A stretch of DNA of 45,798 nucleotides from Acidimicrobiia bacterium (GTDB taxonomy: Bacteria; Actinomycetota; Acidimicrobiia; Spongiisociales; ZC4RG35), in assembly GCA_036446835.1 (NCBI GenBank), contig JAZFTT010000103.1, positions 1 through 45,798 of the forward strand, written 5' to 3'. Under the pieces are notes generated by a model. That model worked only from the letters and a program-made list of their open reading frames with translations. It had not been told where the DNA came from and made no database searches. Positions 1 through 20,691 of the stretch are shown one piece after another. How positions within the stretch are numbered: the stretch's first letter is position 1; each line of letters begins with the position of its first letter. The translations under genes and the position numbers were made by a program.

Positions 1-94
1 TGGATCGGTCTGCACCGGGATGTCCGGAATCGGCAGAATCTCTCTACCGATTTTCGGGTCTTGCGTCATGACAGTCTCCTTGGCTAGCGAACGG
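1..94. repeat. Direct terminal repeat copy 1 (94 nt, identical to 45705..45798)
   Basis: Compared base by base with the last 94 nt of the window: no mismatch. Contains RBS AAGGAG, start codon (67..69, minus strand) and the first 23 codons of the sulfatase-like stub. Confidence 0.97.
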
Positions 95-187
95 CGAGGC
101 CGGATGTCTACACGACCTCGAAAACCGATGCAATCGAGGGCACGCACGAGGGGCGGCTAGCTTCGCCCCAGTAATGGAGGGCAAGCC

Positions 188-277
188 GTGACCAAACTTC
201 ACAATCAGATTGACGAGGTCATGGTCAAGGTGGAGGGTGGCGAGTTTGCCATGGGTTCGGAGGACTTCTACCCCGAT
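188..277 (+). pseudogene. 5' stub (~30 codons) of a formylglycine-generating enzyme (FGE/SUMF1-type sulfatase maturase)
   Basis: GTG at 188 with GGAGGG at 174..179. MTKLHNQIDEVMVKVEGGEFAMGSEDFYPD matches the conserved FGE N-terminus (v.lPGG.F.MGS..FYPeE). Resemblance ends near 277; the open frame (188..559) then runs antisense through the 3' end of the next gene. Confidence 0.55.
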
Positions 278-382
278 GTAGATAGAGACATCGGACCTCG
301 ACCCTTCTTAGTGAGGTCTTTTGGTTCGTGTTCGTTCTCATCCGGGACGGGGATGTCACATGGGCTCGATACGAAACAGGTC

Positions 383-2083
383 CTAGATCTTGGGCAGATC
401 CAAGTGTTGACTCACGCCTTTGTCGTAGAGCGGGATTGTGGCCACGAGTCCCGTGTACCCGTCGACGGCGACGATATGTTCCGAGTCGCTAGGGAGGCTT
501 ACCCCGGACACAGCCGGGATTCCGAGGGAGCGGGCCGACTGAAAGAGGTGGGCCGCTGAGCTTCCTGTCTCTGTCACCAGACCTGCCGCATCCCATAGCA
601 ATGGTGCAAGGCCTGGTACCGGTTGGTCGGCAACGATCACGCCTCGTGAGACGAATGAAGCAGCCTTTTCCGCGTTGTCGATCCTCGAATGGACCCCTGC
701 GCCGATACCGGATGATGCCGGTGTACCTGCAAGGGAAGCTCCCAAGGTCAGAACCACCGAGGCCACAAATGGTTCCCAGCGGTCGATACCGGCCCTGGGA
801 GCAGAGGGCCGGCGACCTCCTTCGAGGAGCTCGGCGATTTCCTTGACGGAGAGATACCAGGCTTCATGAGCCTTGGTGACCACGCCTAGACGAACCATCT
901 CGCCCCGCAAGATCTGGACAAGAGATGTCAGCTTGGCCGCCGCGTTTGGGTCTGGCGGCCTCAGATCGCGTAAACGCTCAAGAGCCTTGGACGGATCGGA
1001 CCCCCGCAGCCAAGACATGCAACGTCGTGCCGCGCGGGTTGCATGGTTGGGCGGCAGTCCCCACACCTGTGACGCGAGCTCACCAGATAGCCGTTTCGCT
1101 TCAGCGATCGTGGCCTCGGGATGATCGTTTATGGAACGGCCCGCACGGGGAAGACCAGCCAGAGCCCAGGGCATGATGAGTTCCTCCCCGAGTTTCCCCG
1201 GCGCTCTCATCACTGTCTGAACGATCCTTACAAGATCAGGATCGGCCTGCTTCGTGACCTGGATAGGAGTGGTAATGGATGTTGGCGGAGTTGTCACGTC
1301 GAGTTGAAGGATCCAGACGTCCCCGTCGACGGCCCACTCGCATCGATTGAGCCCGAATAGCCTTTGTGCCGTGTGGAGTGAGGCTGCGACCACATCGAGG
1401 GAGGCGGTGCCGACCAGTTCGATCAGGTCGGACCCAACCCACTCCATCTGCCGTTCTCCTCCGGAGAGATGTGCCCTGTGACCTCCAACCCAGCCCTGGA
1501 GAAGTGGTACAGGTGAGCCTTCCACTCCATGGACGACCACAGTCCCGTCCGAATCCAGTTCCGCTACACCGCCGCTTTTGGGTCGGAGGGCCGACTGCAC
1601 CAACACTGGCATTGGGAACGAGCCGGGTTGGATCGAGGCTGCTCGTTGACGTTCGAGAGCATCAACTGAGAAGGCCGCGGCCCAGCAACCAGTTACTGCT
1701 TTGGGGAGAAAGGTTGGCGACAGGTTCAGGTACGACGTGAATGCCCCTGCCCACTCTCCTGACCCTTCCAACGCCGTCGAGGAGCGAACAACCAGGCTGG
1801 GCCCGAGTTCGGTCCCTGCCGAAATCAGATCGGCAGCAAACGTCACAGGTTCGCCTGTCACTGCCACGCGGGCTCCGCCTGATCCTCGAAGGGCCAATCC
1901 TTTGGCTCCGAGCCGCATGTGAGGCCGTGAGGCCTCAGCTGAGACAATGAATCCAGGAAGTATTGGAAGGCCGGCCTTGCGTCCACTCGCCAGGCGAGAG
2001 GCCTTGAACCCAACCCGGGTCGGGTCGAGGCTCTTGTCGTGGTCGAGGTCGAGTAACAACCCAGCTAGTGGTCTGTCTTGCAC
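383..2083 (-). CDS. PEP-utilising-enzyme family phosphotransferase: PPDK_N-type ATP-grasp plus C-terminal phosphohistidine swivel domain, no PEP/pyruvate TIM barrel (rifampicin-phosphotransferase / phenylphosphate-synthase-like architecture)
   Basis: 566-aa ORF, GTG start 4 nt after the upstream stop. N-terminus GFKASRLA..GLPILPGFIVS; C-terminus GTPASSGIGAGV...LVTETGSSAAHLFQSARSLGIPAV (catalytic-His swivel motif). Confidence 0.85.
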   Translation of the reverse strand: MQDRPLAGLLLDLDHDKSLDPTRVGFKASRLASGRKAGLPILPGFIVSAEASRPHMRLGAKGLALRGSGGARVAVTGEPVTFAADLISAGTELGPSLVVRSSTALEGSGEWAGAFTSYLNLSPTFLPKAVTGCWAAAFSVDALERQRAASIQPGSFPMPVLVQSALRPKSGGVAELDSDGTVVVHGVEGSPVPLLQGWVGGHRAHLSGGERQMEWVGSDLIELVGTASLDVVAASLHTAQRLFGLNRCEWAVDGDVWILQLDVTTPPTSITTPIQVTKQADPDLVRIVQTVMRAPGKLGEELIMPWALAGLPRAGRSINDHPEATIAEAKRLSGELASQVWGLPPNHATRAARRCMSWLRGSDPSKALERLRDLRPPDPNAAAKLTSLVQILRGEMVRLGVVTKAHEAWYLSVKEIAELLEGGRRPSAPRAGIDRWEPFVASVVLTLGASLAGTPASSGIGAGVHSRIDNAEKAASFVSRGVIVADQPVPGLAPLLWDAAGLVTETGSSAAHLFQSARSLGIPAVSGVSLPSDSEHIVAVDGYTGLVATIPLYDKGVSQHLDLPKI

Positions 2084-2087
2084 ACCA

Positions 2088-3326
2088 CTAGGTCACCGAA
2101 ATGATTTCATGTTGTTTGTAGGTGGTGACCATCTCGTAGCCGGTGTCAGTGACATACAGCATCTCTTCGAGCCGAACTCCGTGATCGTGGAGTTTGCCAT
2201 GCTGGGTCTCGAGGGCAAAGGTCATGCCTTTCTCTATCTCCACGGGATGGTCGAGTGACCAGATCCGTGAAATGACGGGCGGGTCATACTGGGCTAAACC
2301 AAGTCCGTGTCCCCAATTGTTGGCGGCCGCCTGGTCTTCCTCTTCGTAACCCCAAGCTTCTTTGGCCGATGGCCATTTGGCGGCCACATCGGCTGTGGTC
2401 ACGCCGGGTTTGACCGTTTCGATCGAGTCCCACAGCCACTTGTGTGCTTTGTCGTAGGTGTTTTGCATCTCCGCCGTCGGAGTGCCGCCTACACAATAGG
2501 TTCGGTAGCAACACGACTTGTAGCCGTTCCAAGTCAGGGCAGCCAGATCTATGATCACCAGTTCACCGGGACGGATCATCCGATCGGAGAAGTTGCGCCA
2601 GTTGGGCCAGGCGTTCGGGCCGGAGGACACGATTACATCTTCGACATCTTCCATTCCTGCAATGGAGTACAGCTTTTCAAATCCGAAGGCTGCGACCTCA
2701 TTCTCGGTGAGACCAGGCTTGATGAAATTGGTGAGCTCGTAGTGCACGTAGTCGCAAATGGCTCCGACAATCGAGAACGCTTTGATCTCATCTGGACTCT
2801 TTATTGCCCGAGCCTCCATCATTGCCGTCATCGCGTCGGTCCAGTTGACCTCTCGATCCTCGAAGGCACGTACGAGGTTGATGTCGATGAAGTCGACCCC
2901 CAGCGGCTCATCTTTGACTCCCGCATCCTCGAGGTCATTGAGTAGGGAGTTCATGAACTTGGCTACTTGTTGGTCCGCAGCGGGGCCAACTGCCCCTTTG
3001 ATCCATGAATAGGAATAACGAATGTTCTCCTTGGGAATCCAGGGGTTGTGTTCGGCGAGATGAAAACCGATGTCGCCCTGTTCATAGACGATGGGAGCCT
3101 TTCCTCTCGGTAGAACCACATAACGAAGTCCAGGTTTTAGACGGTTCCATCCTGGCGTGAGGGTGGACGAGACGTAGCGCATGTTCTCGTCGTAGAACAA
3201 CAACATGGCTCCGAGACCGTGTCTCTCCATGGCCTCGTGAGCTCGCTTTAGTCTCCAATCACGGACATTTGCCCAGTTGATTCCCTCTTTCCAATCGGTG
3301 CTCAGACCGAAGAATGCCTCTCTCAC
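2088..3326 (-). CDS. M24 family metallohydrolase, creatinase / Xaa-Pro dipeptidase / DddP-like (paralog 1)
   Basis: 412-aa ORF, GTG start with GGGAGA RBS. Creatinase_N-like N-half; pita-bread C-half with VIIDLAA, NWGHGLGL, MTFALETQ, LEEMLYVTDTGYE. Confidence 0.85.
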   Translation of the reverse strand: MREAFFGLSTDWKEGINWANVRDWRLKRAHEAMERHGLGAMLLFYDENMRYVSSTLTPGWNRLKPGLRYVVLPRGKAPIVYEQGDIGFHLAEHNPWIPKENIRYSYSWIKGAVGPAADQQVAKFMNSLLNDLEDAGVKDEPLGVDFIDINLVRAFEDREVNWTDAMTAMMEARAIKSPDEIKAFSIVGAICDYVHYELTNFIKPGLTENEVAAFGFEKLYSIAGMEDVEDVIVSSGPNAWPNWRNFSDRMIRPGELVIIDLAALTWNGYKSCCYRTYCVGGTPTAEMQNTYDKAHKWLWDSIETVKPGVTTADVAAKWPSAKEAWGYEEEDQAAANNWGHGLGLAQYDPPVISRIWSLDHPVEIEKGMTFALETQHGKLHDHGVRLEEMLYVTDTGYEMVTTYKQHEIISVT

Positions 3327-3354
3327 AGGTCAATTCTCCCAGCTCATTGTTCTC

Positions 3355-4587
3355 TCATTCAACTCTTCCCGGCATGACGTCCCTAACGATATCGAGGAAC
3401 TCTTCGTCGTCGAGGAGACCCCTCTTGGCCAACGATTTGCCTTTGACTTCGGCCAAGATCGCCTCGATCTCTTTGGTTTCAGCGTCGTTGATGTCGTATT
3501 TGCCGAGCCAGAGCGCCACGGAGTCGAGTCCTGACCCCTTGCCCAGAACGATGCTTGGCTGGGGTTGTCCCACCAGTTCAGGACGATAGGGGAACGGTTC
3601 AAGGAGATCGTCCCCGGCGTTCTTGACCCAAGTGGCGATGATGCCGGACTCAACGTTGTACAACATGTCGCCAGTGACGGGACGGTTGCCGGGCTGAGCA
3701 ACTCCAGACAAATCGGCGACAAGCCCCGCGATTTCAGTGAATCTCTCCGTTTTGATCCCGAGGTCGAGTCCGTACATGGTCAACAACGCAAGAACCGTTT
3801 CTTCGGTAGGTGCGTTGCCGGCGCGCTCACCGAGACCGCTCACTGTGGTGTGAATGACGGATGCGCCCTCAGTGACGGCTAGAACCGTGTTGGCAACTCC
3901 CATCCCGAAGTCCATATGGAAGTGGGTTTCTAGGGGAACATCCAACCGCTCTCGAACTCGACGCGTGTAGTAACGGATGGCATGAGGGGACGTGACGCCG
4001 AATGTGTCAACGAGGGCAATGTTGTCGACATGGCCATCGGTGGCGACAGCCTCGAGATCGTCGAGCAGTTCAGTCATCGAGGCTCTAGTGGCGTCGATGG
4101 GAAAGAAGGTGACCTTGAGCCCGTTGTCATGGGCGTACTTGGTTGCCTCGATCGAGGCGTCGATGGCCCGTTCGACCGGCCACTGATAGGCCTTCTCGAT
4201 GAGATGATGGCTGGCCGGGACCTCCATGACGACCCCAGTCACACCAGAGTCGATCGCCAGCTCGACATCAGCCACCATGCAGCGACTGAAAGCGTAGATT
4301 TCGCATGGCAGGTCTGCTGCCACGATTCGATCAACAGCTTCCTTGTCAGCCGGAGAGACAGCGGGGAGACCTGCTTCGATCCTATGAATGCCTGCCTCGG
4401 CAAGTGCCTCGGCGATCCTCAGCTTGTCATCTGCGGAGAATTCGATCCCTGCCTGTTGTTCACCATCACGGAGCGTCACATCGTGCACCTGGACGTTGTC
4501 CGGGATCTGGAAATCCTCAGTGATCTCGGGTAAGTAGTTCCACGGACTGGAGAACCACTTGTCGCTTTTCCACTGCTCTGTGCCCAT
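3355..4587 (-). CDS. HMGL-like DRE-TIM metallolyase (isopropylmalate/homocitrate/citramalate-synthase-like)
   Basis: 410-aa ORF, ATG with AGGAG RBS. HDVTLRDGEQ and HFHMDFGMGVAN motifs. Confidence 0.85.
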   Translation of the reverse strand: MGTEQWKSDKWFSSPWNYLPEITEDFQIPDNVQVHDVTLRDGEQQAGIEFSADDKLRIAEALAEAGIHRIEAGLPAVSPADKEAVDRIVAADLPCEIYAFSRCMVADVELAIDSGVTGVVMEVPASHHLIEKAYQWPVERAIDASIEATKYAHDNGLKVTFFPIDATRASMTELLDDLEAVATDGHVDNIALVDTFGVTSPHAIRYYTRRVRERLDVPLETHFHMDFGMGVANTVLAVTEGASVIHTTVSGLGERAGNAPTEETVLALLTMYGLDLGIKTERFTEIAGLVADLSGVAQPGNRPVTGDMLYNVESGIIATWVKNAGDDLLEPFPYRPELVGQPQPSIVLGKGSGLDSVALWLGKYDINDAETKEIEAILAEVKGKSLAKRGLLDDEEFLDIVRDVMPGRVE

Positions 4588-4617
4588 CTCTGCTGCTCCT
4601 AACCCGTTCGACAGGGT

Positions 4618-4639
4618 GATCCTGCATCATATACGATCC
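4618..4639 (-). promoter_or_regulatory. Box A: GATC-flanked 22-mer with -10-like TATGAT followed by GCA; putative promoter/operator of the HMGL-like operon
   Basis: Minus-strand reading GGATCGTATATGATGCAGGATC is 18/21 identical to box C (33851..33871). The hexamer ends 38 nt before the ATG at 4587. Confidence 0.45.
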
Positions 4640-4677
4640 ATTCTTCATCATCCCAAACCACCGGAGCACACTGACAA

Positions 4678-5598
4678 ATGAGACCACGAATCCTATGGAT
4701 TGGAGGGTATGGCCCCGAAAAGAGTGCCCATGGCGTAGGTCTGGCCGCGTTCCGACGTGTAGTGGAAACCGAGAGCGATGGTGAAGTTGAGGTCAGGATC
4801 AATTGGAACATCATGGACGAGGGACGGCCAAATACCGACCTGTTGAAGCTGGTCGAAGCCGGCGACATGTTTCTTTGTTACTTCTCGTCGAGCTATCTCG
4901 GAGGGCGTGTTCCCGAGCTCAACGTTCTGGAGACACCATTCCTTTTTGAAACCCTCGAAGCAGCGCACCAGTCGCTCGACGGATCGCTCGGGGATACCCT
5001 GAGGCGAGCGGTCCGCACCTCAACCGGATTCGAGGTGCTCGGATTCTGGGACAACGGTTTCCGCCATCTCACCAACCGACTCCGTACGGTCCGTTGCCCC
5101 AAGGATTGTGAGGGCATGAGCGTGCGCATGCAGCCGAACCCCATTCACGAGGAGCTCATCCGATCCTGGGGCGGAATTCCAGTGGCGGTCGAGCTCAGCC
5201 ATGCCATACGTCTGATAGCCAGTCTCGAAGTCGACGCCCAGGAGAATCCGCTCGCCAATACAGTCGCCTATGGGGTCGACCAGGTTCATTCAAATGTCAC
5301 GATGACTGGGCATCTGTATGGGGCACGAGGTCTCTTTGCTCATGGCCCCACCTTCGAGTCTCTTTCGCCCCAGCTTCGTCAGGTGATCGAGGGGGCGGTC
5401 CGGGTAGCGATCAACGAGCAACGTAACTCGGCACGCGATCTGGAGACCAGCCTCCGTGTCAGGATGGTGTCGGCAGGGACCGAGTTCGTCGACCTCACAG
5501 AATCCGAGCGAAACCTATTTGTCGAAGCTTCGGCACCGGCGATCGCGCTGGCCCACCAGAACGTTCCCGAAGAGTTGTTCGATTTGACCCGATCATGA
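4678..5598 (+). CDS. TRAP-type (DctP family) solute-binding protein homolog without signal peptide; no DctQ/DctM in the window
   Basis: 306-aa ORF. In-frame TGA (4672..4674) two codons upstream of the ATG excludes an N-terminal extension. DctP-like blocks: LVEAGDMFLCYFSSSYLGGRVPELNVLETPFLF, GFEVLGFWDNGFRHLTN. Confidence 0.75.
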   Translation: MRPRILWIGGYGPEKSAHGVGLAAFRRVVETESDGEVEVRINWNIMDEGRPNTDLLKLVEAGDMFLCYFSSSYLGGRVPELNVLETPFLFETLEAAHQSLDGSLGDTLRRAVRTSTGFEVLGFWDNGFRHLTNRLRTVRCPKDCEGMSVRMQPNPIHEELIRSWGGIPVAVELSHAIRLIASLEVDAQENPLANTVAYGVDQVHSNVTMTGHLYGARGLFAHGPTFESLSPQLRQVIEGAVRVAINEQRNSARDLETSLRVRMVSAGTEFVDLTESERNLFVEASAPAIALAHQNVPEELFDLTRS

Positions 5599-6341
5599 GT
5601 GAAGGACTTCGCCGACGCATCGTTGTCGTCACCGGTGCCGCGATGGGTATCGGGCGTGCAACGGCACTTGCCTTCGGCGAAAACGGGGACTTCGTCTACA
5701 TCCTCGATATTGACCTGGAGAAAGGGTCTGAGGTGGCCGCTCTCAACGAGCACGCCAGATTCGTTCGTTGCGATGTCACTTCTTCCGAGGAAGTTCGGGA
5801 TGCGATAGGACAGATTGGTGAGGAATCGGGGCATATCGACGTGCTGGTCAACAACGCCGGGGGTTTTCCGTCACAGCGCAGTCTGGAAGAGACTTCGCTT
5901 GATGAGTGGCGTCAGATCGTCGATCTCAACCTCACCTCGGTGTTCCTCATGACCCAGGCTGCCCTTCCGTTGATCCGTCAATCTGAGAGGGGGCGTATCA
6001 TCAATATCGGGTCTCTAGCGGGACAGCTCGCCACCCACCGCACCGCCCCGCCCTACGCAGCAGCGAAAGCCGGCGTCCACAGTCTCACTCGTGTCATGGC
6101 GGCGGAACTGGCGCGAGATGGCATCACGGTCAATGCACTGGCGCCGTCTGCGGTGATGACTGAGCGTATTGGGAGACTGCGTAATGAGAAAGAGAGACAA
6201 GCTACGGCGGCCACTATCCCGCTGGGCAGATACCAAAGCCCTCCCGAGGTGGCCGAGTGGATCCTGTTTCTGGCATCTCCGGAGGCCGGATTCATGACCG
6301 GACAGACCGTTTCGGTAAACGGCGGTAGGTTCATGACATGA
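5595..6341 (+). CDS. Short-chain dehydrogenase/reductase (FabG-like SDR)
   Basis: 248 aa; TGAAMGIGRA, NNAG, YAAAKAG (YxxxK). ATGA overlap with the upstream gene. Confidence 0.9.
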   Translation: MSEGLRRRIVVVTGAAMGIGRATALAFGENGDFVYILDIDLEKGSEVAALNEHARFVRCDVTSSEEVRDAIGQIGEESGHIDVLVNNAGGFPSQRSLEETSLDEWRQIVDLNLTSVFLMTQAALPLIRQSERGRIINIGSLAGQLATHRTAPPYAAAKAGVHSLTRVMAAELARDGITVNALAPSAVMTERIGRLRNEKERQATAATIPLGRYQSPPEVAEWILFLASPEAGFMTGQTVSVNGGRFMT

Positions 6342-6359
6342 GAGCAGTGAGGTGTTGAC

Positions 6360-6743
6360 TTGGCCAGGCTGATCAGATTCGACGAGGCTGAACCGGTTGA
6401 TCGCGGTGACGGGATCGAGAGTGTCCGCCTGACCCCAGATCCATTGGAGGATCAGGCCTTCACGATGGGCGTGACCAGTTTTCCGCCCGGTGCCAGCATT
6501 CGACTTCATAGCCACAACACGGTCGAGCAAGTGACGGTGATCGAAGGGGAAGGATTGGCCGAGTTGAACGGTGAACAGGTGCCGGCGCGTCCCTACGACA
6601 CGACACAGATTTCCCCCGGTGAGCTCCACCGTTTCATCAACACCGGGTCTAGAAAGATGCGGATCCTGTGGGTATACGGAAGTACCGAGGTCACCCGAAC
6701 CTTCGCCGACACCGGGGAGACTGTTGAACAGTTTCAGCAGTGA
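6360..6743 (+). CDS. Cupin_2 domain protein (monocupin 1)
   Basis: 127 aa, TTG start after GAGGTG. Cupin motifs IRLHSHNTVEQVTVIEGEG and PGELHRFINTG. Confidence 0.7.
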   Translation: MARLIRFDEAEPVDRGDGIESVRLTPDPLEDQAFTMGVTSFPPGASIRLHSHNTVEQVTVIEGEGLAELNGEQVPARPYDTTQISPGELHRFINTGSRKMRILWVYGSTEVTRTFADTGETVEQFQQ

Positions 6744-7780
6744 GGTTTGCACTCGAGCGGCTTGAAGTGTTCGTAGTAGAGATTCTGGTCAGACTTGATG
6801 TTCTTCCTGAGCACGCCGAGATTACTGCACGGCGGCTCGTGGACGCAGATCTGCGTGGGCGCAACGGTCATGGGCTGATTCGGATTCCCCAATATGTAGC
6901 CCGGATCGAGGCCGGCGGCATCAACCTTCGGCCTGAGATCCAATTGCTCCGAGAGACTCCGGTGAGCGCATTGGTCGATGGTGACAATGGTCTCGGGCAG
7001 GTGGTCATGACCATGGCGACAGAGACGGCGATTGAGAAGGCAAACCGGTCAGGCATGGCCTGGGTGGGCACGGTGCACTCCAATCACGCGGGTGCTGCAG
7101 GCATCTATACGGCGCTCGCTCTGGAGCAGGATCTGATTGGCATCTACATGGCTGTGGCCAGCGCCAACGTCATGCCACCTTGGGGTGGGTCGGAACGCCT
7201 CCTCGGGACCAATCCGATCTCGATTGCGATTCCCGCTGGCGACGAAACGCCACTTCAAATCGACATCGCCACCACTGTGGCGTCGCACGGGACGATCAAG
7301 GTGTTGGCACAAGCCGGACAGAGCATGCCGGAGGGTTGGGTCATCGACTCAGAGGGCAATCCGATCACCGATCCTCGCAAAGCTGATGAGGGATTCTTGA
7401 TGCCGATCGGCGGTTACAAGGGCTCGGGCCTGAATATGGCAATCGGCTTGTTGGCCGGAGTGCTCAACGATGCTGCGTTCGGGGCGGAGGTAATCGACCA
7501 TCGCACCGTCGCCGATCAGCCGGCAAACACCGGCCAAGCGATCCTGGTCATGCGGCCCGACCTGTTTCGTGATCTGCAGGAGTTCAAAGGCGCCATGGAC
7601 AATCACCTACGACAGATGCGGGAGTCGGGGCCCTCGGGCACGGTTCACATTCCCGGTGATGGTGCGGTCAGACTCGAAGCCGAGCAGCGATGCCTTGGTG
7701 TTGAGATTTCGCCGACACTGCTCGACCAGCTTCGTGACCTGGCTGACCGGTTCGCGCTCCACGACCGTCTCGACGATTAG
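6740..7780 (+). CDS. Ldh_2 family oxidoreductase (malate / L-sulfolactate / ureidoglycolate dehydrogenase-like)
   Basis: 346 aa, GTG overlapping the upstream stop (GTGA). RGRNGHGLIRIPQYV, VHSNHAGAAGIY, PIGGYKGSGLNM. Confidence 0.85.
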   Translation: MRFALERLEVFVVEILVRLDVLPEHAEITARRLVDADLRGRNGHGLIRIPQYVARIEAGGINLRPEIQLLRETPVSALVDGDNGLGQVVMTMATETAIEKANRSGMAWVGTVHSNHAGAAGIYTALALEQDLIGIYMAVASANVMPPWGGSERLLGTNPISIAIPAGDETPLQIDIATTVASHGTIKVLAQAGQSMPEGWVIDSEGNPITDPRKADEGFLMPIGGYKGSGLNMAIGLLAGVLNDAAFGAEVIDHRTVADQPANTGQAILVMRPDLFRDLQEFKGAMDNHLRQMRESGPSGTVHIPGDGAVRLEAEQRCLGVEISPTLLDQLRDLADRFALHDRLDD

Positions 7781-7913
7781 ACGGACTCCGACCTCCTGAC
7801 CGGCTGCGGCAGGGGCCAGGCGTAGGCGCCGGCTCGGTGACCTCACGCCCCGGACTGCGCGAATTTTCCGAATAGGAGTTCACCCGGACCTTCGTCGAGT
7901 CCGTACCAGTCAC

Positions 7914-7981
7914 CTTGGTGCGAACCGCCTCCTTGTAGCGCTCCGATGACAGGTGGGCGTGCCTGTCGATAATGGGGACAT
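7914..7981 (-). pseudogene. Frameshifted 5' stub of an amidohydrolase-type gene
   Basis: Own minus-strand translation: GAGGAAAG RBS, then ATG (7981..7979). The ATG is 5 nt, not a multiple of 3, ahead of ATT ATC GAC AGG CAC GCC CAC CTG = IIDRHAHLSSERYKEAVRTK. The I(I/V)D.H.HL start is typical of TIM-barrel amidohydrolases. Confidence 0.3.
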
Positions 7982-8111
7982 AGCCGGTCTCTTTCCTCGA
8001 TCAAATGTGTGGGCCCTTCCCACACCTACGGGGAGTGCTGGAAGGAAGCCGATTGTCATGTCGGCAGGCTGGGTCATACATTCAGCCCAACAGCCAATCG
8101 AGAGACGAACC

Positions 8112-8885
8112 ATGACCGAATCCTTCAAACAGCGACTTCAAAACGGCGAGCGACTCGTCGTATTCGCAGTGGGGAGGATGTTTCATCACAACATCATCCA
8201 ATACCTGGGCATGACCGGGTATTTCGACGGTTTCTGGATCGACGTCGAGCACGGTGGTCTCTCGGTGAAAGACGTCGAGGTTGCCGTTGCTGCGGGAAGG
8301 GCCCACGGACTGGAGAGCTTCGTTCGTGTCCCGCCGACCGACTACGCCACTGTGACTCGGTGCTTCGAGAGCGGGGCGGTGGGCGTAATGGCGGCTCAGA
8401 TCACTTCGGCCGAACAAGCGGAGGAGTTTGTCCGTTGGTCGAAGTTCGCCCCAAGAGGTCGGAGAGGCCTCAACCCACTGGGATACGACGGCCGGTTCGG
8501 GTCAGTGCCCTTGGCCGAGTTCGCCGAGAGGGCCAACCGGGAGTCGTTTGTGGCGGTACAGATTGAGACTGCCCAGGCGGCTGACGAAGTCGACGCGATT
8601 GCTGCAATCGACGGGGTTGACTTGTTGTTCGTCGGCCCATCGGATTTGAGTCAGGCGCTGGGGACCATCGGCGACTTCACCAGCGAGAAGAACATGGAGG
8701 TCGTCGATCGAATTGCCGAGGCTTGTCGCACCCACCGCAAGCAGTGGGGTGCGGTGACTCCCAATCCGGATTACGCATCGTTGCTGATCGAAAAGGGCTG
8801 TACCCTGATCTCGCCGACCAATGACGTGAAGCTGGTCACGACCGGAATGGCCGCTGTGAAGGAGAGCTTCTCACAACTCTGGTGA
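8112..8885 (+). CDS. HpcH/HpaI family class II aldolase (2-keto-3-deoxy-acid aldolase)
   Basis: Start moved to the ATG at 8112 (MTESFKQRLQNGE, as in HpaI MENSFKAALKAG). WIDVEHG, VQIETAQA, GVDLLFVGPSDLS. Confidence 0.85.
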   Translation: MTESFKQRLQNGERLVVFAVGRMFHHNIIQYLGMTGYFDGFWIDVEHGGLSVKDVEVAVAAGRAHGLESFVRVPPTDYATVTRCFESGAVGVMAAQITSAEQAEEFVRWSKFAPRGRRGLNPLGYDGRFGSVPLAEFAERANRESFVAVQIETAQAADEVDAIAAIDGVDLLFVGPSDLSQALGTIGDFTSEKNMEVVDRIAEACRTHRKQWGAVTPNPDYASLLIEKGCTLISPTNDVKLVTTGMAAVKESFSQLW

Positions 8886-8909
8886 TGCGCCATCGGGGGA
8901 ATGGCGGCT

Positions 8910-9587
8910 TCAATCGGATTCGGAGTCCAACTCGAAGGCCTCGAGGGGGTGGTTGATGTGCCCGTACTGGATGGCGACCGCTGCCTCGACCTCACCCTTC
9001 TCATACGCCTCAATGAGGGAATAATGCTCGGCGATCGCTCGCCTTCGAATCTCGGGGTGGAGACGCTGCGCCTGTGCCACAAAGACTCCTCCTGCCTCTT
9101 CGAGCGTTGAGAGGATGCTGCTCAACCGGACCGTCCGGGTTGCCTCATGGAAAACCAGGTGGAAATTTATATTCCGCTCTACCCACGAGCCGAGGTCCTG
9201 TTCATCGGATAGCTCATTGGCGAGAGCCCTCGCCCGATTCATCTCCTCTTCGGTGATGTGGGCCATTGCCCGTCTGATGGCGACCTCTTCGAGTGAGCGT
9301 CGGATCTCGACGATCTCAACCATTTCGTCCCAATCAGGCTTGCGCACGATCCCGATGCGATGACTGTCCATCGTGATGAGACCCTCGCTGGCCAGATCGC
9401 GCATTGCTTCCCGCACCGGTGTGGTGCTCACGCCGAGCTGATTGGCGATCTCGGTCTGAACCAGTTGCGAGTCTCCCGCCAGATCACCACGTAGAATGGC
9501 GGCACGGAGGGTGCCACGGACCAGTTCGACTGCTGTCACCCGGGGTGACAGCGAAGCGTCGAGACGAAAATTGTCCCCGCTGCTCAT
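8910..9587 (-). CDS. GntR family transcriptional regulator with FCD ligand domain (GntR-1)
   Basis: 225 aa; wHTH QLVQTEIANQLGVSTTPVREAMRDLASEGLI followed by a helical FCD-like C-domain. Confidence 0.9.
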   Translation of the reverse strand: MSSGDNFRLDASLSPRVTAVELVRGTLRAAILRGDLAGDSQLVQTEIANQLGVSTTPVREAMRDLASEGLITMDSHRIGIVRKPDWDEMVEIVEIRRSLEEVAIRRAMAHITEEEMNRARALANELSDEQDLGSWVERNINFHLVFHEATRTVRLSSILSTLEEAGGVFVAQAQRLHPEIRRRAIAEHYSLIEAYEKGEVEAAVAIQYGHINHPLEAFELDSESD

Positions 9588-9687
9588 TCAGATTTCGTTT
9601 GACCAATACGGGCAAAAGCGCGATCGGGTTTGGTCCCAAGCTGCGTCTTCTGGTGATCCCTCTCTCTGGTGGTCACAAGTGAGGCTC

Positions 9688-9700
9688 CTGTAGTATACCG
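9688..9700 (+). promoter_or_regulatory. Box H: CTGTAGTATACCG, -10-like TAGTAT in the GntR-1 / M24-2 divergent region
   Basis: 9-mer CTGTAGTAT recurs at 35493..35501. TGTAG(A)ATATACCGA recurs at 15371..15385. TAGTATACCG fits the FadR-type GntR half-pattern T.GT..AC. Confidence 0.4.
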
Positions 9701-9737
9701 ACTATAGAGAACAGGATTCCTCTACTCGGGAGTTGTC

Positions 9738-10958
9738 ATTCACAAATACGCCAAGGGTCCATTCGCGGTCGATTGGGAGGATCGTTACGATTTCGCTGAG
9801 CTTCGTCGGGAACGAGTTGCCAAAGCCCAGGCGGCCCTATCCGATTCCGGAGTCGATGCAATTCTCGTCTGGAAAGACGAGAACGTCCGCTACCTGACTG
9901 GGCTGCGCGCCCAGCTCATTACCGGAAAGACGACTTCGCTGAATGGGGCGCTGCTCACACCATCCGAGGAACCGGTACTGCTCGCTTCGGGAGGCGAGGT
10001 CGACAAGGCCAAGTTCGGTATGAGCTGGATCGGCGAGGCGCATGCGGTGCCGATCATGGAGCAGCGGGAGCTCGTAGACGGGTTTGTAACCAGCACGCTG
10101 ACATCCGTTCTCCGCGAGCGAGATCTTCTCTCCGGTAAGCTCGGAGTTGACCAGGCAAACATCTCATTCATCGAGTCGGTGCGAACCCATCTGCCCAACG
10201 TTGAACTGGTCGACGGCGACACGATCATGCAGCAGGCCCGGTGGATCAAGAGTGATCTCGAGGTAGCCGTCATCGAAGAGGCGTGTGCCATTGGTGACTC
10301 GGTCACACAGCGTGCGCTTGATGAGACGAGGGCTGGCCGCCGGGAGTTGGAGGTTGCAGCCGATGCGATGCAGACCCTCTTCCAACTCGGCGGAGAGATG
10401 GCACACGTCATCACGCCGTTTGTCGCCTCGGGCGAGCACATGTCCCCTCCGCACCGTATAGCCACCGACAAGATCATTCGGAACCAGGATCTCTGCTTCA
10501 TCGACATCGGGGCAATGTGGAACGGCTACTTCGCCGACATCGGCCGAACGACGGTTGTGGGGAAGCCCTCCAAGACGCAACAGAAGATCTACACCGCGGT
10601 GTACGAGGGTCTAATGGCCGGGATAGAAAAGATGCGCCCGGGCTTCACCAATCAAGACTGCGCCGACGCCATCATCGCCAAGATCGCCGATCACGGGTTC
10701 GAAGATCATCTGTTCAGCCTGTTCATCGGGCACGGCATTGGCATGGGTGCCAATGAGCCCCCTTATATCGGAGAGACTCTCGAGGGCACCACCACCTACG
10801 ATTTTCAGCCGAACATGGTTTTTGCAGTGGAGCCACTGGTCTGGGTCCCCGGCGTTCGTGGTGGCGGAGGGGTTCGCATCGAAGACATGGTCCTGATCAC
10901 CGACGGGGACCCCCACCTGCTCTCCAGGGTGGAGTACGAGGAGCGTCTTCTGATCTGA
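9738..10958 (+). CDS. M24 family metallohydrolase (creatinase / Xaa-Pro dipeptidase-like, paralog 2); start codon non-canonical or lost
   Basis: The frame is open from 9708. 9708..10019 encodes a Creatinase_N-like segment (DFAELRRERVAKAQAALSDSGVDAILVWKDENVRYLTG) with no ATG/GTG/TTG. ATT at 9738 lies 5 nt after GGGAG (9728..9732). The C-half has FIDIGAMWNGYFADIGRT, GHGIGMG, VFAVEP, VRIEDMVLIT. Confidence 0.75.
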   Translation: MHKYAKGPFAVDWEDRYDFAELRRERVAKAQAALSDSGVDAILVWKDENVRYLTGLRAQLITGKTTSLNGALLTPSEEPVLLASGGEVDKAKFGMSWIGEAHAVPIMEQRELVDGFVTSTLTSVLRERDLLSGKLGVDQANISFIESVRTHLPNVELVDGDTIMQQARWIKSDLEVAVIEEACAIGDSVTQRALDETRAGRRELEVAADAMQTLFQLGGEMAHVITPFVASGEHMSPPHRIATDKIIRNQDLCFIDIGAMWNGYFADIGRTTVVGKPSKTQQKIYTAVYEGLMAGIEKMRPGFTNQDCADAIIAKIADHGFEDHLFSLFIGHGIGMGANEPPYIGETLEGTTTYDFQPNMVFAVEPLVWVPGVRGGGGVRIEDMVLITDGDPHLLSRVEYEERLLI

Positions 10959-10964
10959 ACCGGA

Positions 10965-11900
10965 TCAGGTTTTGAGCAGTCCGATTACTGCGTCGGTGAT
11001 CACTTCGGCCACCCGGTCGACAGACTCGATGGTGTTGCCGGCGATATGCGGGGTCAGAATCACGTTGTCCAGACCCGCGAAGGTCGCGGCCGGCTCTGGG
11101 CCAAGGGGCTCTGACGCGAAAACATCGATCGCGGCTCCGGAAATGAGACCCTCCCGCAGGGCTCTTGCTAGGGCTGGCTCGTTGACGGTCCCACCCCTCG
11201 ATGTGTTGATGAGGATCGCCCGTGGCTTCATCCGCTCGAATTCGGTCGCATCGATCAGATTCTTTGTTCCCTCGTTGAGGGGAATGTGGAGACTGATTAC
11301 GTCGGCCTGACCGAGCAGTTCGTCGAGTTCGACCTTTTGAGTGTCTTTCCAGGCTTGGTCATCGTCTGAGAGAAAGGGATCGTAGGCGACGATTGTCATA
11401 TCGAATGCCGCTGCCCTGACGGCGACTGTGCGGGCGATTGACCCATAGCCGACCAGTCCGAGCGTTGTTCCCATCAACTCCCTTCCGAACGCGTGACCCT
11501 GACGCGGCCAATCCCCAGCCACCATCGACCTGGTCATTCCGAAGACACGTCTCGTCAGGATGAGCATGGCCGTCATCACGTACTCGGCTACCGAAACCGC
11601 GTTGGCCCCTACCGCTGGGACCACCGTTACCCCAGCGCTCGCGCAGGCCTCCATGTCGATGTTGTCCAATCCGACTCCAAGACGTCCGACCACTTTCAGT
11701 TCCGTCGCGGCCGCCAGAATCTCGGTGTCGATCCAGGTTCGATTGCGGATGACTATCGCTTCAGCGTCGGCAACAATCTCGAGCAGCCGCGGACGATCTT
11801 TGTACAAGTCCGGGTCGAAGACGACGTCGAACTCAGCGGATAGACGAGCGAGGGACTTTTCCTGCAGGAACTCGGAGACGACGATTCGGCGCGTAGGCAG
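10965..11900 (-). CDS. D-isomer-specific 2-hydroxyacid dehydrogenase (paralog 1); start codon uncertain
   Basis: GLVGYGSIARTVA Rossmann motif, NTSRGG, PHIAGNT. The conserved beta-1 strand RRIVVSEF lies upstream of the first TTG (11807), in a frame that opens right after the permease stop and has no ATG/GTG/TTG. CTG at 11898..11900 is used as a provisional start. Confidence 0.75.
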   Translation of the reverse strand: MPTRRIVVSEFLQEKSLARLSAEFDVVFDPDLYKDRPRLLEIVADAEAIVIRNRTWIDTEILAAATELKVVGRLGVGLDNIDMEACASAGVTVVPAVGANAVSVAEYVMTAMLILTRRVFGMTRSMVAGDWPRQGHAFGRELMGTTLGLVGYGSIARTVAVRAAAFDMTIVAYDPFLSDDDQAWKDTQKVELDELLGQADVISLHIPLNEGTKNLIDATEFERMKPRAILINTSRGGTVNEPALARALREGLISGAAIDVFASEPLGPEPAATFAGLDNVILTPHIAGNTIESVDRVAEVITDAVIGLLKT

Positions 11901-11912
11901 AAATCTGCTGAC

Positions 11913-12848
11913 TTACTTCCCTGACCCGGAAATGAGACCGGCGACCACGTGCTTCTCCACGAAGGTGTAGAAGATAATGAAGGGGACGACTGTGAGGACT
12001 GTGAATGCCGCCTCTATCGGATAGTCGGCAACGCCTTCGACGCCCTGCATCTTGTACAGCTCGAATGGCAGTGTCCGATTTCCTGGTGAGTTGACCAGCA
12101 CGAGGACCAGAGTGAACTCGTTCCACGCCTCACGAAATGCGAGAACGCCGACTGTGATCATGGCGGGTGCGGCCAGCGGTCCCACTATGTAACGGAGACG
12201 TCCCCAAAGACTGGCTCCGTCGACGTTGGCCGCCTCCTCTATTTCGCGTGGGATCGCTTGGAAGAAGCCCACCAACAACCACACAGCGAGAGGTAAGAGC
12301 ATCGCCGTGTAGACGATTATCAGGGTGATGCGTTTGTCCAGCATGTCTGTCGCCACGGCGAGTCGGTAGATCGGGATCATCAGCCCGAGACTGGGCACCA
12401 GCCGCGGAAGGAGGGTGAACAGCAACAGCAGGTGTCGGCCCCGAAATCTGAATCTGGCAAAGGCGTATGCGGCAGGTACTGCAATCACGATGGTCAATAC
12501 GGTTGTGCCGACGCCTACGAGGACACTGTTCCAGAACGAAGTTGTGAAACTCTCACTGGCCAGAACATCGACATAGGCGTCGAGGCTCGGGCTCGCCGGT
12601 ATCAGCGACGGATCCGCAAACACCTCCGTCTTATCCTTGAGGGAAACCGACAAGGTCACAAAGAACGGCGCCACGGTCCAGACCACCAGCGCGATCAACG
12701 GGATCGAAGTCAGGATGCTCCTGATGATCCCCCTTGTTCTTCGACCCGCTGTTCGCCTGGGCTCTCGAGGGGTGCCTTCGGAGGCTTTCAGAGCCTTCTC
12801 GGCGACAGACTCGATGAGGAACTCGTCTTGAGAGTGTATGTCGGTCAT
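11913..12848 (-). CDS. ABC transporter permease, CUT1 family (MalG/UgpE-like)
   Basis: 311 aa, multiple hydrophobic helices, EAA loop IEEAANVDGASLWGRLRYIVGPLAAP. 4-nt overlap with the upstream permease gene. Confidence 0.9.
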   Translation of the reverse strand: MTDIHSQDEFLIESVAEKALKASEGTPREPRRTAGRRTRGIIRSILTSIPLIALVVWTVAPFFVTLSVSLKDKTEVFADPSLIPASPSLDAYVDVLASESFTTSFWNSVLVGVGTTVLTIVIAVPAAYAFARFRFRGRHLLLLFTLLPRLVPSLGLMIPIYRLAVATDMLDKRITLIIVYTAMLLPLAVWLLVGFFQAIPREIEEAANVDGASLWGRLRYIVGPLAAPAMITVGVLAFREAWNEFTLVLVLVNSPGNRTLPFELYKMQGVEGVADYPIEAAFTVLTVVPFIIFYTFVEKHVVAGLISGSGK

Positions 12849-13825
12849 GCGTCGTAGTCGTATCTGCGGCCGATACCCACGTATCCCAGCGTGAGCACGG
12901 CATTGAGGATCAATATGAACGTTGCGAGCGCCAGCGCCTGGTTGAACTCGAGATTGCGGAAGGCCACGGTGTACATCTCCATTGCCATCGTCTGAGTGGC
13001 TTTGAGTGGTCCACCGCCGGTCAGGGCGAGCACTACGCCGAGCCCGGTGAGCGTCGAGTAACTCAGCCAGACAACGCTGATCAGCATTTGTGGGGCGAGA
13101 AGCGGGATGGTGACGTGGCGGGCTCGGGTCCAGCCGGTAGCTCCATCGACAAGGGCCGCGTCCAGATGTGCGTCGTCAATGGTCATCAGCCCCCCGAGAA
13201 GCAGAAGGATCACGAGGGGAAGGTCGGTCCACACCTGGGTGAAGATCACAGTGACCATCGCCATGGTCGGGTCGGCCAGCCACCTAGGGGCGCTCTCCAC
13301 CCAAGGTAGGGCTTCGATAGCCTGGTTCACCGTTCCAAACTGGGAGTTGAAGAGAATTCGAAACATCACAGCCGCCGCGACGTTCGAAACGATGTATGGA
13401 CCGATGGTTATGGCCCGGAGGAATCGGAGCTTCCCGACCACTTTGAAGAGGGCGAATGCAAAGAAGAGACCCAGCGCCATTCCGACGGTCAGGGAACCAA
13501 AGACGAATACGGCCGTCTTGTTCAGGGAGTGCCAGAAAGCGTCTGACGAGAACATGTCCGCGTAGTTCTCGAAGCCAACCCAGACCGCAGGTGCCCCCAG
13601 CGATGGGCGGCGGTACAGGCTCTGCCACACGCCATACAGGACCGGAAAACCAAGGAGAGCGGCCACGAGAAGTATGGCCGGGAGGCTGAAGAGGTAGGGC
13701 GTCGCCTTGCTGACACCGATGATGGCGTTGTTGTCCTGACCCGGCGGCTCTTTGCGTTGCCACCAGCGGCGGTCGCGCTTCGGTTTAGGGTCGGTCTTCG
13801 GTTTGGGAGCTGTGGCTGTCGTCAT
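12845..13825 (-). CDS. ABC transporter permease, CUT1 family (MalF/UgpA-like)
   Basis: 326 aa, EAA loop DAALVDGATGWTRARHVTIPLLAP, hydrophobic helices throughout. Confidence 0.9.
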   Translation of the reverse strand: MTTATAPKPKTDPKPKRDRRWWQRKEPPGQDNNAIIGVSKATPYLFSLPAILLVAALLGFPVLYGVWQSLYRRPSLGAPAVWVGFENYADMFSSDAFWHSLNKTAVFVFGSLTVGMALGLFFAFALFKVVGKLRFLRAITIGPYIVSNVAAAVMFRILFNSQFGTVNQAIEALPWVESAPRWLADPTMAMVTVIFTQVWTDLPLVILLLLGGLMTIDDAHLDAALVDGATGWTRARHVTIPLLAPQMLISVVWLSYSTLTGLGVVLALTGGGPLKATQTMAMEMYTVAFRNLEFNQALALATFILILNAVLTLGYVGIGRRYDYDA

Positions 13826-13857
13826 AGGTCGGACATCGTCACATTGCGAGAGTACAG

Positions 13858-13893
13858 GAACGCTCCCTCGCCGGTGAAAGCGAGGGAGCGTTC
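13858..13893 (-). other. Perfect 14-bp-stem / 8-nt-loop intercistronic hairpin between the SBP and permease genes
   Basis: GAACGCTCCCTCGC cggtgaaa GCGAGGGAGCGTTC; the arms are exact reverse complements. No U-tract follows on the mRNA strand. Confidence 0.8.
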
Positions 13894-13936
13894 TGCATTC
13901 TGTTGGTGCTCGTCATTACGGGACACCGTCTTGTTA

Positions 13937-15289
13937 TCAGGCTTCGTCCAACTCCGCCTGATATCTGGTAGTCAGCTCGGCACAATCGGTGCTTGCACCT
14001 GAGACGATCTCACCGAAGAACTGCTCGAGGATCGCTTCGACCTGGCCTGCGTTCTCACCGGCGGGCTGAGGAACGGCGGCTGTGTAGGCGGCCTTCAGAT
14101 CGTCGTTGAAGAACGGCCAGATGTCCAGCGCTTCTGAGCTGTCGATGAACTCCTGGTTCCGTGCCGGTACGCCACCTTCATCGGCCTGACCCACGAGCCA
14201 TCTCGTTTCAGCGATAGCCCTGATCACCAAACCGGCCTCATATGGATGATCGGTTCCTGTGATGATCCCCCAGGTCCTGGCGGCTGCCAGGGCCACACCA
14301 TCGGTACCAGGCTGGCCACCAGCAAACGGGGCCGGAGTGAGATTCCAATGCGCTGGGTAGTCGAAGTCGGGTATCTCGTTGAAGTCGCCGGCTGTTGTGA
14401 AGCCGTCGAGGATCAGCGCTGCGTTACCACTGGTGAAGGCGGCACGAGACTCGTCCTCACCCCATGCGACTGCGTCAGGTGGGGTTAGACCCTCGGCCGC
14501 AGCATCGACCCACCACTGGCAGGTGTACATCCCACCATCGGAGGTGAGGTCAGGAACAGCGCCAGTGAAGGGCGCTCCGGTCCCCGCGAGCATTGTCTTC
14601 AGGGTGGTCACCCCGTCGCCTGCCTTGGCCTGGACCGTGAGCGGAATCGAATCCGGTCGGGTCGCTTTCAAGGCTCGCATTCCGTCGAGCACCTCGTCGA
14701 AAGTCGCGAACGGGACGGTTACACCGGCTTCAGCGAACCATTCCGTGTTGTAGTAGAAAGCGTCGAAGTTCGCCGTGATCGAGGCACCGATTCCGTCGGT
14801 CTCCGTCCACACATCATCCCAGAGGAGGTTGTACAGATCAGGATCCTCTGCCTCAAACTCGGCCTGGAAGGCTGCATGGTCTCCGACTAGCCCGGACTCC
14901 GCGAAAGCAGGCATGAGGAACGAGTCCTCCGCACCGAGCAGATCGGGCAGCGGCTGACCAGCATCGAGCCTCGTCTGCAGCTGCTGCAGGATGTCGTCGT
15001 TGGACTGGACGTCCACGATCAACTCGATGTTGTGTTCGGCCAGCATTGCCTCAACGAAGCCCGTTGCGACGTAGTACGGCCTGGTGAGGATCACGTTGAT
15101 TATGACCGGTTCACCGGCTGCATCGCCTCCTCCATCTGCTTCTGCTGCTGTAGTTGTCGTATCACTGCTGTCTGAACAGGCTGCGACTATCAACCCCATC
15201 ACCATAAGTAGTGCCAGTCCGCGTACAAATCGAGGGTTGGCTCCTCTCCGTGCTTCGGACTTGGCGCGCCTTCTCACTCTGAAAATCAC
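13937..15289 (-). CDS. ABC transporter extracellular solute-binding lipoprotein (family 1, sugar type)
   Basis: 450 aa, GTG start with GGAGGA RBS. Basic N-terminus, hydrophobic core and lipobox LIVAAC, then a Ser/Thr/Asp-rich linker. Confidence 0.9.
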   Translation of the reverse strand: MIFRVRRRAKSEARRGANPRFVRGLALLMVMGLIVAACSDSSDTTTTAAEADGGGDAAGEPVIINVILTRPYYVATGFVEAMLAEHNIELIVDVQSNDDILQQLQTRLDAGQPLPDLLGAEDSFLMPAFAESGLVGDHAAFQAEFEAEDPDLYNLLWDDVWTETDGIGASITANFDAFYYNTEWFAEAGVTVPFATFDEVLDGMRALKATRPDSIPLTVQAKAGDGVTTLKTMLAGTGAPFTGAVPDLTSDGGMYTCQWWVDAAAEGLTPPDAVAWGEDESRAAFTSGNAALILDGFTTAGDFNEIPDFDYPAHWNLTPAPFAGGQPGTDGVALAAARTWGIITGTDHPYEAGLVIRAIAETRWLVGQADEGGVPARNQEFIDSSEALDIWPFFNDDLKAAYTAAVPQPAGENAGQVEAILEQFFGEIVSGASTDCAELTTRYQAELDEA

Positions 15290-15363
15290 TGAATTCCTCC
15301 TCGAGTATCGTTGCCGTTGCTAAAGCCCCGGCCCGTCGCAGGCGTCGGTCTCGCGACCTTTCC

Positions 15364-15378
15364 TGCATTATGTAGAAT
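15364..15378. promoter_or_regulatory. Box G: back-to-back -10-like elements CATAATGCA (minus, toward the SBP operon) and TGTAGAAT (plus, toward Gfo/Idh/MocA-1)
   Basis: Sequence TGCATTATGTAGAAT. The minus reading CATAATGCAGGA shares ATGCAGGA with box A. The plus reading TGTAGAATATACCGA resembles box H TGTAGTATACCGA. Confidence 0.4.
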
Positions 15379-15470
15379 ATACCGAGTACCGATATTTTGG
15401 TCAAGCGACCCCGACTGGTACCCATTTCCCGGGAGTCGCCACAATGAAGCATACGTAACACGGAGGAATC

Positions 15471-16466: not shown

Positions 16467-16570
16467 ATGTCTTGCATGGCGCAGAAGTGTTTGCCGCTGC
16501 GACGAACGGCGCTACCGGAGCCGACGTCAACATCAATTCCGGCGTGGTCATGTACTGAACCGAAGGAGCA

Positions 16571-17269: not shown

Positions 17270-17336
17270 AGGGACAAAGCACGGATCTGGGCGACGACCT
17301 GGGCGGCTGGGTAGCCTTCGCCGGACGAGAAGTGCG

Positions 17337-17876: not shown

Positions 17877-17921
17877 CGACGGTCGTTTCGAAGGCAGAAA
17901 CATCACGGGAGAACAGAAACA

Positions 17922-18845: not shown

Positions 18846-18849
18846 CCGG

Positions 18850-20642: not shown

Positions 20643-20670
20643 TGCTCCTGCGTTGGTCAGCGCGCCGTCC

Positions 20671-20691
20671 GATCATATATCGTGCATCATG
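20671..20691 (+). promoter_or_regulatory. Box B: GATCATATATCGTGCATCATG with -10-like TATCGT followed by GCA
   Basis: 16/21 identical to box C. The hexamer (20678..20683) ends 45 nt before the GTG at 20729. Confidence 0.4.

Follow-up and report, generated by a model that had tools for sequence, protein, structure and literature searches.

Segmental amplification and the looping out of chromosomal DNA are known kinds of event. Tandem duplication-amplification units include the amplifiable units of DNA in Streptomyces and the selected amplification of catabolic genes, and the circular intermediates of ICEs and IMEs are normally too rare to become the assembled path. Contigs with terminal overlaps ('DTR' contigs) are produced by short-read assemblers from circular or concatemeric templates (CheckV, PMC8116208).

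The stretch of Acidimicrobiia DNA analysed here in its full length of 45,798 nt (hereafter the window) shares features with each of these systems. As in DTR contigs, an exact repeat is found at both contig ends, where a cyclic path has been cut open. The window resembles tandem amplification units in being a chromosomal segment of tens of kb with ordinary genes, arranged head-to-tail in an actinobacterial host, with no replication or transfer function and with a joint located in a region rich in mobile-element remnants. With the circular intermediates of ICEs, IMEs and genomic islands it has in common a closed circle of cargo and, in a sister strain, a tyrosine recombinase gene exactly at the joint. 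The unit is furthermore reminiscent of catabolic plasmids, being closed, about 46 kb in size and densely loaded with catabolic, transport and GntR-regulator genes. The physical form favoured here, with a probability of roughly 0.4, is that the gene block was duplicated or amplified head-to-tail, in tandem and possibly only in part, within an Acidimicrobiia chromosome.

Positions 1-94 of the window are identical, base for base, to positions 45705-45798, which leaves a unit of 45,704 bp with a G+C content of 59.7%. This is the sole terminal overlap in the tested range of 20-1999 nt, the 94-mer occurs at those two sites alone, and an exact match of 94 nt cannot arise by chance. The original prediction of an exact 94-nt terminal redundancy that closes the window into 45,704 bp is thus borne out by the sequence identity and, independently, by closure of the same unit in a second assembly, GCA_044232495.1. 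Overlaps derived from circular templates normally have the length of the odd assembler k (PMC8116208). In contrast to such DTR contigs, the overlap of the window is even and corresponds to no usual k-mer length, and the content is cellular rather than viral or plasmid. A length of 94 would fit k = 95 with an overlap of k-1, or a 94-nt graph edge between two forks. Exact searches with a 48-mer of the repeat gave no match in IMG/VR, JGI metagenome contigs or GTDB genome contigs, and neither did a search of IMG/VR with the PPDK-like protein; the lineage of the window is known from two NCBI assemblies only.

The second assembly, which was reached through exact-protein look-ups, contains three contigs that tile the same circle: contig A (JAZHBU012305383.1, 29,952 bp; window 15894-45798 plus 95-141), contig B (JAZHBU010385807.1, 1,927 bp; window 1-1927 exactly) and contig C (JAZHBU011525771.1, 14,248 bp; window 1787-16034). 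Every overlap between them is exactly 141 nt long, as MEGAHIT-style unitigs with k = 141 would give, and the three contigs differ from the window by 30 mismatches in total. Length and partial protein of contig B had been predicted before the look-up and were found as predicted. Since contig A continues into window positions 95-141, its 141-mers span the end of the block, the 94 nt and the start of the block (45448 - linker - 141). The head-to-tail joint, i.e. the end of the unit followed by its start, is therefore present in this assembly as well, with contig A leading up to position 141 and contig B running onward from 1 to 1927.

The first copy of the overlap (1-94), at whose first base contig B begins exactly, carries on the minus strand a ribosome-binding site, an ATG (69-67) and codons 1-23 of an arylsulfatase-like fragment. 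The second copy (45705-45798) is the same stretch re-read as the path wraps. Because contig A passes through it and runs 47 nt past its right edge, and because the sulfatase reading frame crosses the left edge, the 94 nt are one stretch read twice where the assembler path overlaps itself and not a two-copy repeat. The match to arylsulfatase N-termini spans the left edge of the repeat, so the junction 45704|1 is native contiguous sequence, and the contig ends represent an arbitrary cut through one copy. A false circle caused by a 94-nt repeat at two loci was accordingly rejected: the outer flanks are not different, the end copy being followed by window 95-141 in GCA_044232495.1, and on the left the sulfatase frame continues in its native form. 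The contig forms a true cycle in the graph of the assembly, and at the sequence level its closure is genuine.

The last gene of the block, encoding a MalK-like ATPase, is linked to the first, encoding a PPDK-like enzyme, by 536 nt (45449-45704 plus 1-280) that are specific to the lineage of the window and consist of fragments of three genes, namely an IS110 transposase, an arylsulfatase and a formylglycine-generating enzyme (FGE). Searches of Pfam and PDB left the three short fragments unrecognised; they were identified by tblastn and by small profiles built from real proteins. The IS110-family fragment (45449-45657, plus strand) comprises about 70 codons, which correspond to residues ~153-222 in a transposase of 404 aa; a tblastn search of plasmids matched it with E = 2e-11 and 41% identity across 70 aa, whereas for Pfam it is too short. 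An internal IS110-type fragment of ~63 codons had been noticed at this junction before, and it is real and slightly longer. Intact IS copies are absent from both ends, the 70-codon internal fragment being alone in the unit, with no second copy.

The adjacent arylsulfatase fragment (45657-45773, minus strand) corresponds to the first 39 codons. Its reading frame starts with the ATG at 45773, matches real N-termini over residues 6-39, crosses the left edge of the repeat at residue 23|24, and then enters IS110-derived sequence to stop at 45624. BLASTP against the N-terminus of an Embleya arylsulfatase aligns aa 7-38 (18/35 identical, E = 9e-5). Over aa 6-39, a profile built from eight real arylsulfatase N-termini gives 13.1 bits; when aa 24-49 are shuffled, the score drops to 7.4 +/- 0.8 bits, and none of 500 shuffles reaches 13.1. 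Divergent from the sulfatase lies the FGE fragment (188-277, plus strand; first 30 codons), for which a profile of six real N-termini gives 25.1 bits (E = 8.6e-10, aligned to 'FYPD'), a score likewise reached by 0 of 500 shuffles. The divergent spacer between both fragments measures 118 nt and contains at window 150-170 a GC-rich hairpin-like palindrome, GGGGCGGCTAGCTTCGCCCC.

The 94-nt overlap is thus located within one contiguous sulfatase/FGE fragment of ~330 nt. The non-native joints are found elsewhere, at 45448|45449 (J1), ~45657 (J2) and ~277-281 (J3, where the FGE fragment is cut), and none of them coincides with an edge of the repeat. Tandem amplification units have a novel joint that is clean, or a flanking repeat that is intact; the window instead possesses a 536-nt patchwork of three fragments. 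This scar brings together pieces of unrelated genes at a place where relatives also carry mobile-element remnants.

Between the outer joints extends the block proper (281-45448, 42 genes, 45.2 kb). Forty-two plausible ORFs were called, and all were scanned against Pfam. With the exception of one ORF lacking a Pfam family (17256-17876), they encode metabolic, transport or GntR-type proteins. The first gene specifies the PEP-utilising, PPDK-like enzyme (383-2083, minus strand; PF00391, PF01326) and the last one the MalK/MsiK-like ABC ATPase (44212-45435, plus strand; PF00005, PF17912). Further enzymes are two M24 peptidases, an HMGL-like protein, an SDR, cupins, Ldh_2, HpcH/HpaI aldolases, 2-hydroxyacid dehydrogenases, three GFO/IDH/MocA oxidoreductases, a cyclase, Zn-ADHs, a TPP enzyme, a CoA-transferase III, an ADP-forming acyl-CoA synthetase, an aldo-keto reductase, an FAA hydrolase, two 3-hydroxyisobutyrate-dehydrogenase-like proteins, four amidohydrolases, CMD and an HbpS-like protein. 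Transport is represented by DctP, an ABC sugar system whose MalK-like ATPase is an orphan, two MFS proteins and EamA, and regulation by two GntR/FCD proteins.

A decayed HbpS-like paralogue is present at 43694-44026 (plus strand), with 73-75% nucleotide identity to 39754-40111 of the HbpS-like gene at 39675-40130. At this position two related contigs (L092 and L093) keep intact ORFs of 146 and 121 aa, respectively, while ~258 nt are missing from the window. One of the M24 peptidases, listed at 10020-10958, is preceded by an in-frame Creatinase_N-like stretch (9690-10958), and its start probably lies ~110 codons earlier, as in the relatives (372-420 aa).

Coding sequence makes up 93.3% of the unit. 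The remaining 3,048 nt of intergenic sequence hold no further gene, and the spacers contain only N-terminal extensions, the decayed HbpS-like paralogue and the junction region. Neither the Pfam scans of the 42 ORFs nor the inspection of intergenic ORFs revealed genes for Rep, ParA/B, relaxase, T4SS, integrase or toxin-antitoxin proteins, and no terminase, portal, capsid or tail family is found among the 42 ORFs. This agrees with the earlier statement that the unit holds only about 42 metabolic, transport and regulatory genes and none for replication, partitioning, mobilisation, integration or phage functions, and it answers with Pfam the family search for Rep, Par, relaxase and integrase proposed along with it. 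A plot of the cumulative GC skew, also proposed there as a means of finding an origin, rises almost steadily from a minimum at 4693 to a maximum at 45698 with no turn. DnaA-box-like sites number 11 against 11.1 expected and form no cluster. The unit contains no Rfam families, inverted repeats or iterons (TRF gave two trivial 20-nt arrays), and no internal repeats of at least 30 nt above 74% identity; tRNA genes are absent both from the window and from the flanks of the relatives. Excisionase genes and att-like repeats are lacking in the window, and no significant short repeat is shared by the two edges of the block.

These data bear directly on the possibility of an autonomous plasmid or small chromid with an unrecognisable origin or initiator. 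Its closed topology is seen in two assemblies, one ORF has no Pfam family, and to our knowledge plasmids of Acidimicrobiia are almost unknown, which makes novel replication systems conceivable. That ORF, however, is conserved in place (83%) in a syntenic contig of a relative (L012), and all others belong to metabolic or transport families. A hidden replicon is unlikely because the genes of the unit leave no room to encode a Rep protein, the 3 kb of non-coding DNA showing neither iterons nor an excess of DnaA boxes nor a skew switch. A search of plasmids with the 49-aa sulfatase fragment, the sole gene of the window so searched, gave no match. Unlike catabolic plasmids, the window is devoid of rep, par, mob and origin signatures, and its genes are syntenic with the chromosomes of relatives: all 41 genes tested (of 42) have an Acidimicrobiia homologue, nearly all in the same order. 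The plasmid with a cryptic replicon that had been put forward among the explanations is therefore considered very unlikely.

Structural comparison with related Acidimicrobiia shows that the block is collinear with their linear contigs. A group of contigs with 93% nucleotide identity (L005-L010; L005 has 167,999 bp) contains genes 1-13 in the same order, and its homology to the window ends at 281, beyond which genes for Fic, MarR, FMN-reductase, luciferase-like and YCII proteins follow. Genes 12-28 are found in order on L012, which belongs to the same MAG as L008, and genes 33-42 on L092 (95%) and L093 (94%), where homology ends at 45448. Past this position the latter two have ~90 nt in common, a remnant of a tyrosine recombinase on the opposite strand (PF00589, E = 0.013). 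The remnant, representing the C-terminus of the enzyme, lies directly downstream of the MalK-like gene (L092 10745-10835; L093 7714-7900). In L093 it is followed by a 5'-truncated glnD-like HD gene without its N-terminal domain. In the relatives the right edge of the block is thus a graveyard of mobile-element remnants.

The same genes occur in more distant genomes on contigs of 55-355 kb. As the block is collinear with long linear contigs (L005 with 168 kb, L012, and L092/L093/L105) and is flanked there by unrelated genes, the genes of the window constitute a chromosomal catabolic neighbourhood. An excised or amplified chromosomal segment is accordingly the best of the three readings offered by the original prediction, given the long linear chromosomal contigs of the relatives; its proposed substrate, a duplicated sulfatase-promoter segment, does not stand, the 94 nt being part of one contiguous fragment that is read twice.

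The closest relative is a MAG (GCA_964194555.1) with 95-97% nucleotide identity, represented by contigs L054, L092 and L105. Contig L105 corresponds to window 7252-274 and is continued 2 nt later by the 3' end of a tyrosine recombinase gene, whose 5' end forms the terminus of L092. The ends of both contigs overlap by 92 nt with 100% identity; the order in the sister strain is therefore MalK, a linker of 1,221 nt, PPDK-like gene. This linker consists of ~90 nt of the right flank of 'linear type', a recombinase ORF of 336 aa and ~32 nt of the left flank of 'linear type'. The recombinase retains its SAM-like and catalytic domains (PF00589, E = 1.7e-22). The joints of the window lie just inside the flank remnants of the sister. 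An integrase or recombinase at one end is hence present in the sister linker and absent from the window.

A related recombinase was found in an additional contig (L106, SMUX01348301.1; 452-1924), in which an excisionase (HTH_17) lies beside an integrase of 382 aa with 97% identity to that of the sister linker. The flanks of the L106 integrase are unrelated and a tRNA-like sequence lies downstream; a 3' fragment of the gene also occurs in the 71-kb contig L175. Since this longer integrase adjoins an excisionase in an unrelated context, the recombinase of the sister derives from a mobile element, and the element in L106 is its probable source. The three sister contigs are clearly Acidimicrobiia-like, yet the MAG to which they were assigned bears the label Boseongicola (Alphaproteobacteria); they are mis-binned, possibly on account of a sequencing depth differing from that of the host chromosome.

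The arrangement in the sister strain raises the possibility of a free circle looped out of the chromosome, an excised island or amplified extrachromosomal circle without replication genes of its own that may coexist with an integrated copy. A two-domain tyrosine recombinase in the linker between the MalK and PPDK-like genes is the layout of a circularised integrative element, and the nesting of the window joints within the sister flank remnants (~90 nt and ~32 nt) fits common descent with turnover of the linker. Closure in two assemblies and the lack of a fork in contig A on the block-end side of the joint point in the same direction, and the binning of the sister contigs with an unrelated alphaproteobacterial MAG may reflect a different coverage. 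In the sister strain, however, only the adjacency of end and start is seen and not closure of the whole circle. Contrary to ICE and IME intermediates, the window has neither integrase nor excisionase, att repeats, tRNA target or transfer genes, and a non-replicating circle should be rare instead of forming the dominant assembled path. A free circle is therefore regarded as somewhat unlikely.

Further variation is observed in the order of the neighbourhood. On the 175-kb contig L011 of a distant relative the PPDK-like gene directly adjoins MFS_3 (gene 37) in the same relative orientation, whereas the adjacency of genes 14 and 15 is kept in L012, L013, L042, L044 and L053. The neighbourhood is thus cyclically permuted among genomes, the 'late' genes being placed either before or after the 'early' genes (L011 and L038 versus L012, L042, L044 and L053), and the lineage of the window shows both kinds of adjacency at once. 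Duplication followed by differential loss would be expected to leave such a permuted order, and so would looping out with subsequent re-insertion. The neighbours of the PPDK-like gene are Fic/MarR in L005, the tyrosine recombinase in L105 and MFS_3 in L011.

A more far-reaching and distinctly improbable interpretation assumes a long-lived or repeatedly circularising catabolic element without replication or transfer genes of its own, common to at least two Acidimicrobiia lineages ~5% apart, of which one keeps the recombinase at the joint and the other has a scar instead. Were such recurrent circularisation to take place, the element leaving and re-entering the chromosome in cycles would account for the cyclic permutation among Acidimicrobiia as well.

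The cycle in GCA_044232495.1 is interrupted by three forks, each consisting of a single node. The first (N1, positions 1-141) joins contigs A and B, and its first base is the first base of the window contig. Window and second assembly do not differ at either 45704 or 142; therefore some third sequence joins at position 1 in both assemblies. The second node (N2, 1787-1927, 141 nt) is common to contigs B and C. Contig C first departs from the window at the very next base, 1928, and then again at 1948, 1973 and 2000, and three of these mismatches fall on third codon positions; N2 is a strain-SNP fork, and strains are thus mixed. The third node (N3, 15894-16034, 141 nt), common to contigs C and A, lies inside a GFO/IDH/MocA oxidoreductase gene (15471-16466), with no adjacent SNP between the window and the contigs of the second assembly.

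The forks at 0|1 and 15894-16034 suggest that the cycle is attached to other sequence. A chromosome arranged as X-[1..16034]-[16035..45704]-[1..16034]-Y would produce an in-fork at 1 together with an out-fork at 16034, though the window contig is unbroken at 16034, where this layout predicts a break. Neither the search for the neighbour X with the sulfatase N-terminus nor that for another branch at 15894-16034, both made with short peptides, yielded candidates; the latter missed even the protein of the window itself, so that these two negatives carry no information. The left-flank genes of the relatives (Fic, MarR, FMN reductase, luciferase) gave no cluster member from GCA_044232495.1, and no mention of the WGS prefix JAZHBU was found in the literature.

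Other explanations were tried and rejected: a polymorphic inversion between 1 and 16034, a polymorphic IS insertion at 45704|1, and exact 141-mers common with known relatives each predict extra contig breaks, none of which is seen.

Two proteins of the window have no exact full-length match in the second assembly, the PPDK-like enzyme, whose gene is split between contigs, and the solute-binding protein, whose gene carries a patch of 14 SNPs. This patch (14 differences within 55 nt at 14531-14585, relative to contig C) and a second one in the PPDK-like gene (4 differences within 73 nt at 1928-2000) contrast with a divergence of ~0.03% elsewhere and look like short recombination imports.

A graph artefact, in which no molecule contains the whole cycle, has to be weighed in this context. 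It could result from the collapse of a longer direct repeat (for example 1-1927 or 1-16034 present twice) or from co-assembly of strains that differ in gene order, and it would be consistent with the three forks, of which one reveals mixed strains, with an even and unusual overlap length where overlaps of true circles pile up at odd k (PMC8116208), and with the cyclically permuted order among relatives (L011 and L038 versus L012, L044 and L053). The simple form of an assembler artefact suggested originally, a two-copy repeat of 94 nt, is excluded by the 141-mers across the joint and the continuous ORF. As for the extended forms, the unit lacks internal repeats of the size and identity given above, and if both known gene orders were mixed, forks should appear at 281 and 45448, where none occurs. 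An artefact of this kind is considered unlikely.

Head-to-tail copies within the chromosome are favoured because the cycle has branches, the genes cannot replicate themselves and the skew runs in one direction. The joint is real, with contigs A, B and C tiling the circle and the sulfatase ORF continuous across 45704|1, the genes are chromosomal and come without replicon features, and the forks at 1 and 15894-16034 indicate attachment to something else, which at the same time speaks against a free circle. We infer both the tandem chromosomal copies, as opposed to a free circle, and the recombination that could have led to them. DNA downstream of the MalK gene would have recombined with DNA downstream of the PPDK-like gene in an illegitimate or mobile-element-associated event, in the region that is rich in mobile-element remnants in the relatives. 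The last gene would thereby have become joined to the first via the 536-nt scar, with the copies arranged head-to-tail.

Several observations do not follow readily from tandem copies. The flanks X and Y of the supposed array were not recovered, the window contig has no break at 16034, and the forks are not located at 45448|45449, ~45657 and ~277-281, where a simple one-step duplication would put them. Moreover, and unlike the situation in known tandem amplification units, end and start are also adjacent in a sister lineage, through a different linker. An unstable tandem duplication would have to have persisted for long, or to have been followed by another event independent of the first, whereas the adjacency in the sister is more easily explained by a stable circle.

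Terminal overlaps are widely used to call 'complete circular elements', and the window passes in two assemblies though its content is chromosomal. Because a circularity test is passed by plainly chromosomal content, the window usefully calls for care when plasmids and viruses are catalogued. If the amplification is real, it would be a natural example of how, in a class of actinobacteria that is uncultivated, the dosage of a catabolic neighbourhood of 45 kb is increased. If the unit is a free circle, it would provide a route to move or maintain large cargo without recognisable replication genes, and a mechanism for the cyclic permutation of the cluster.
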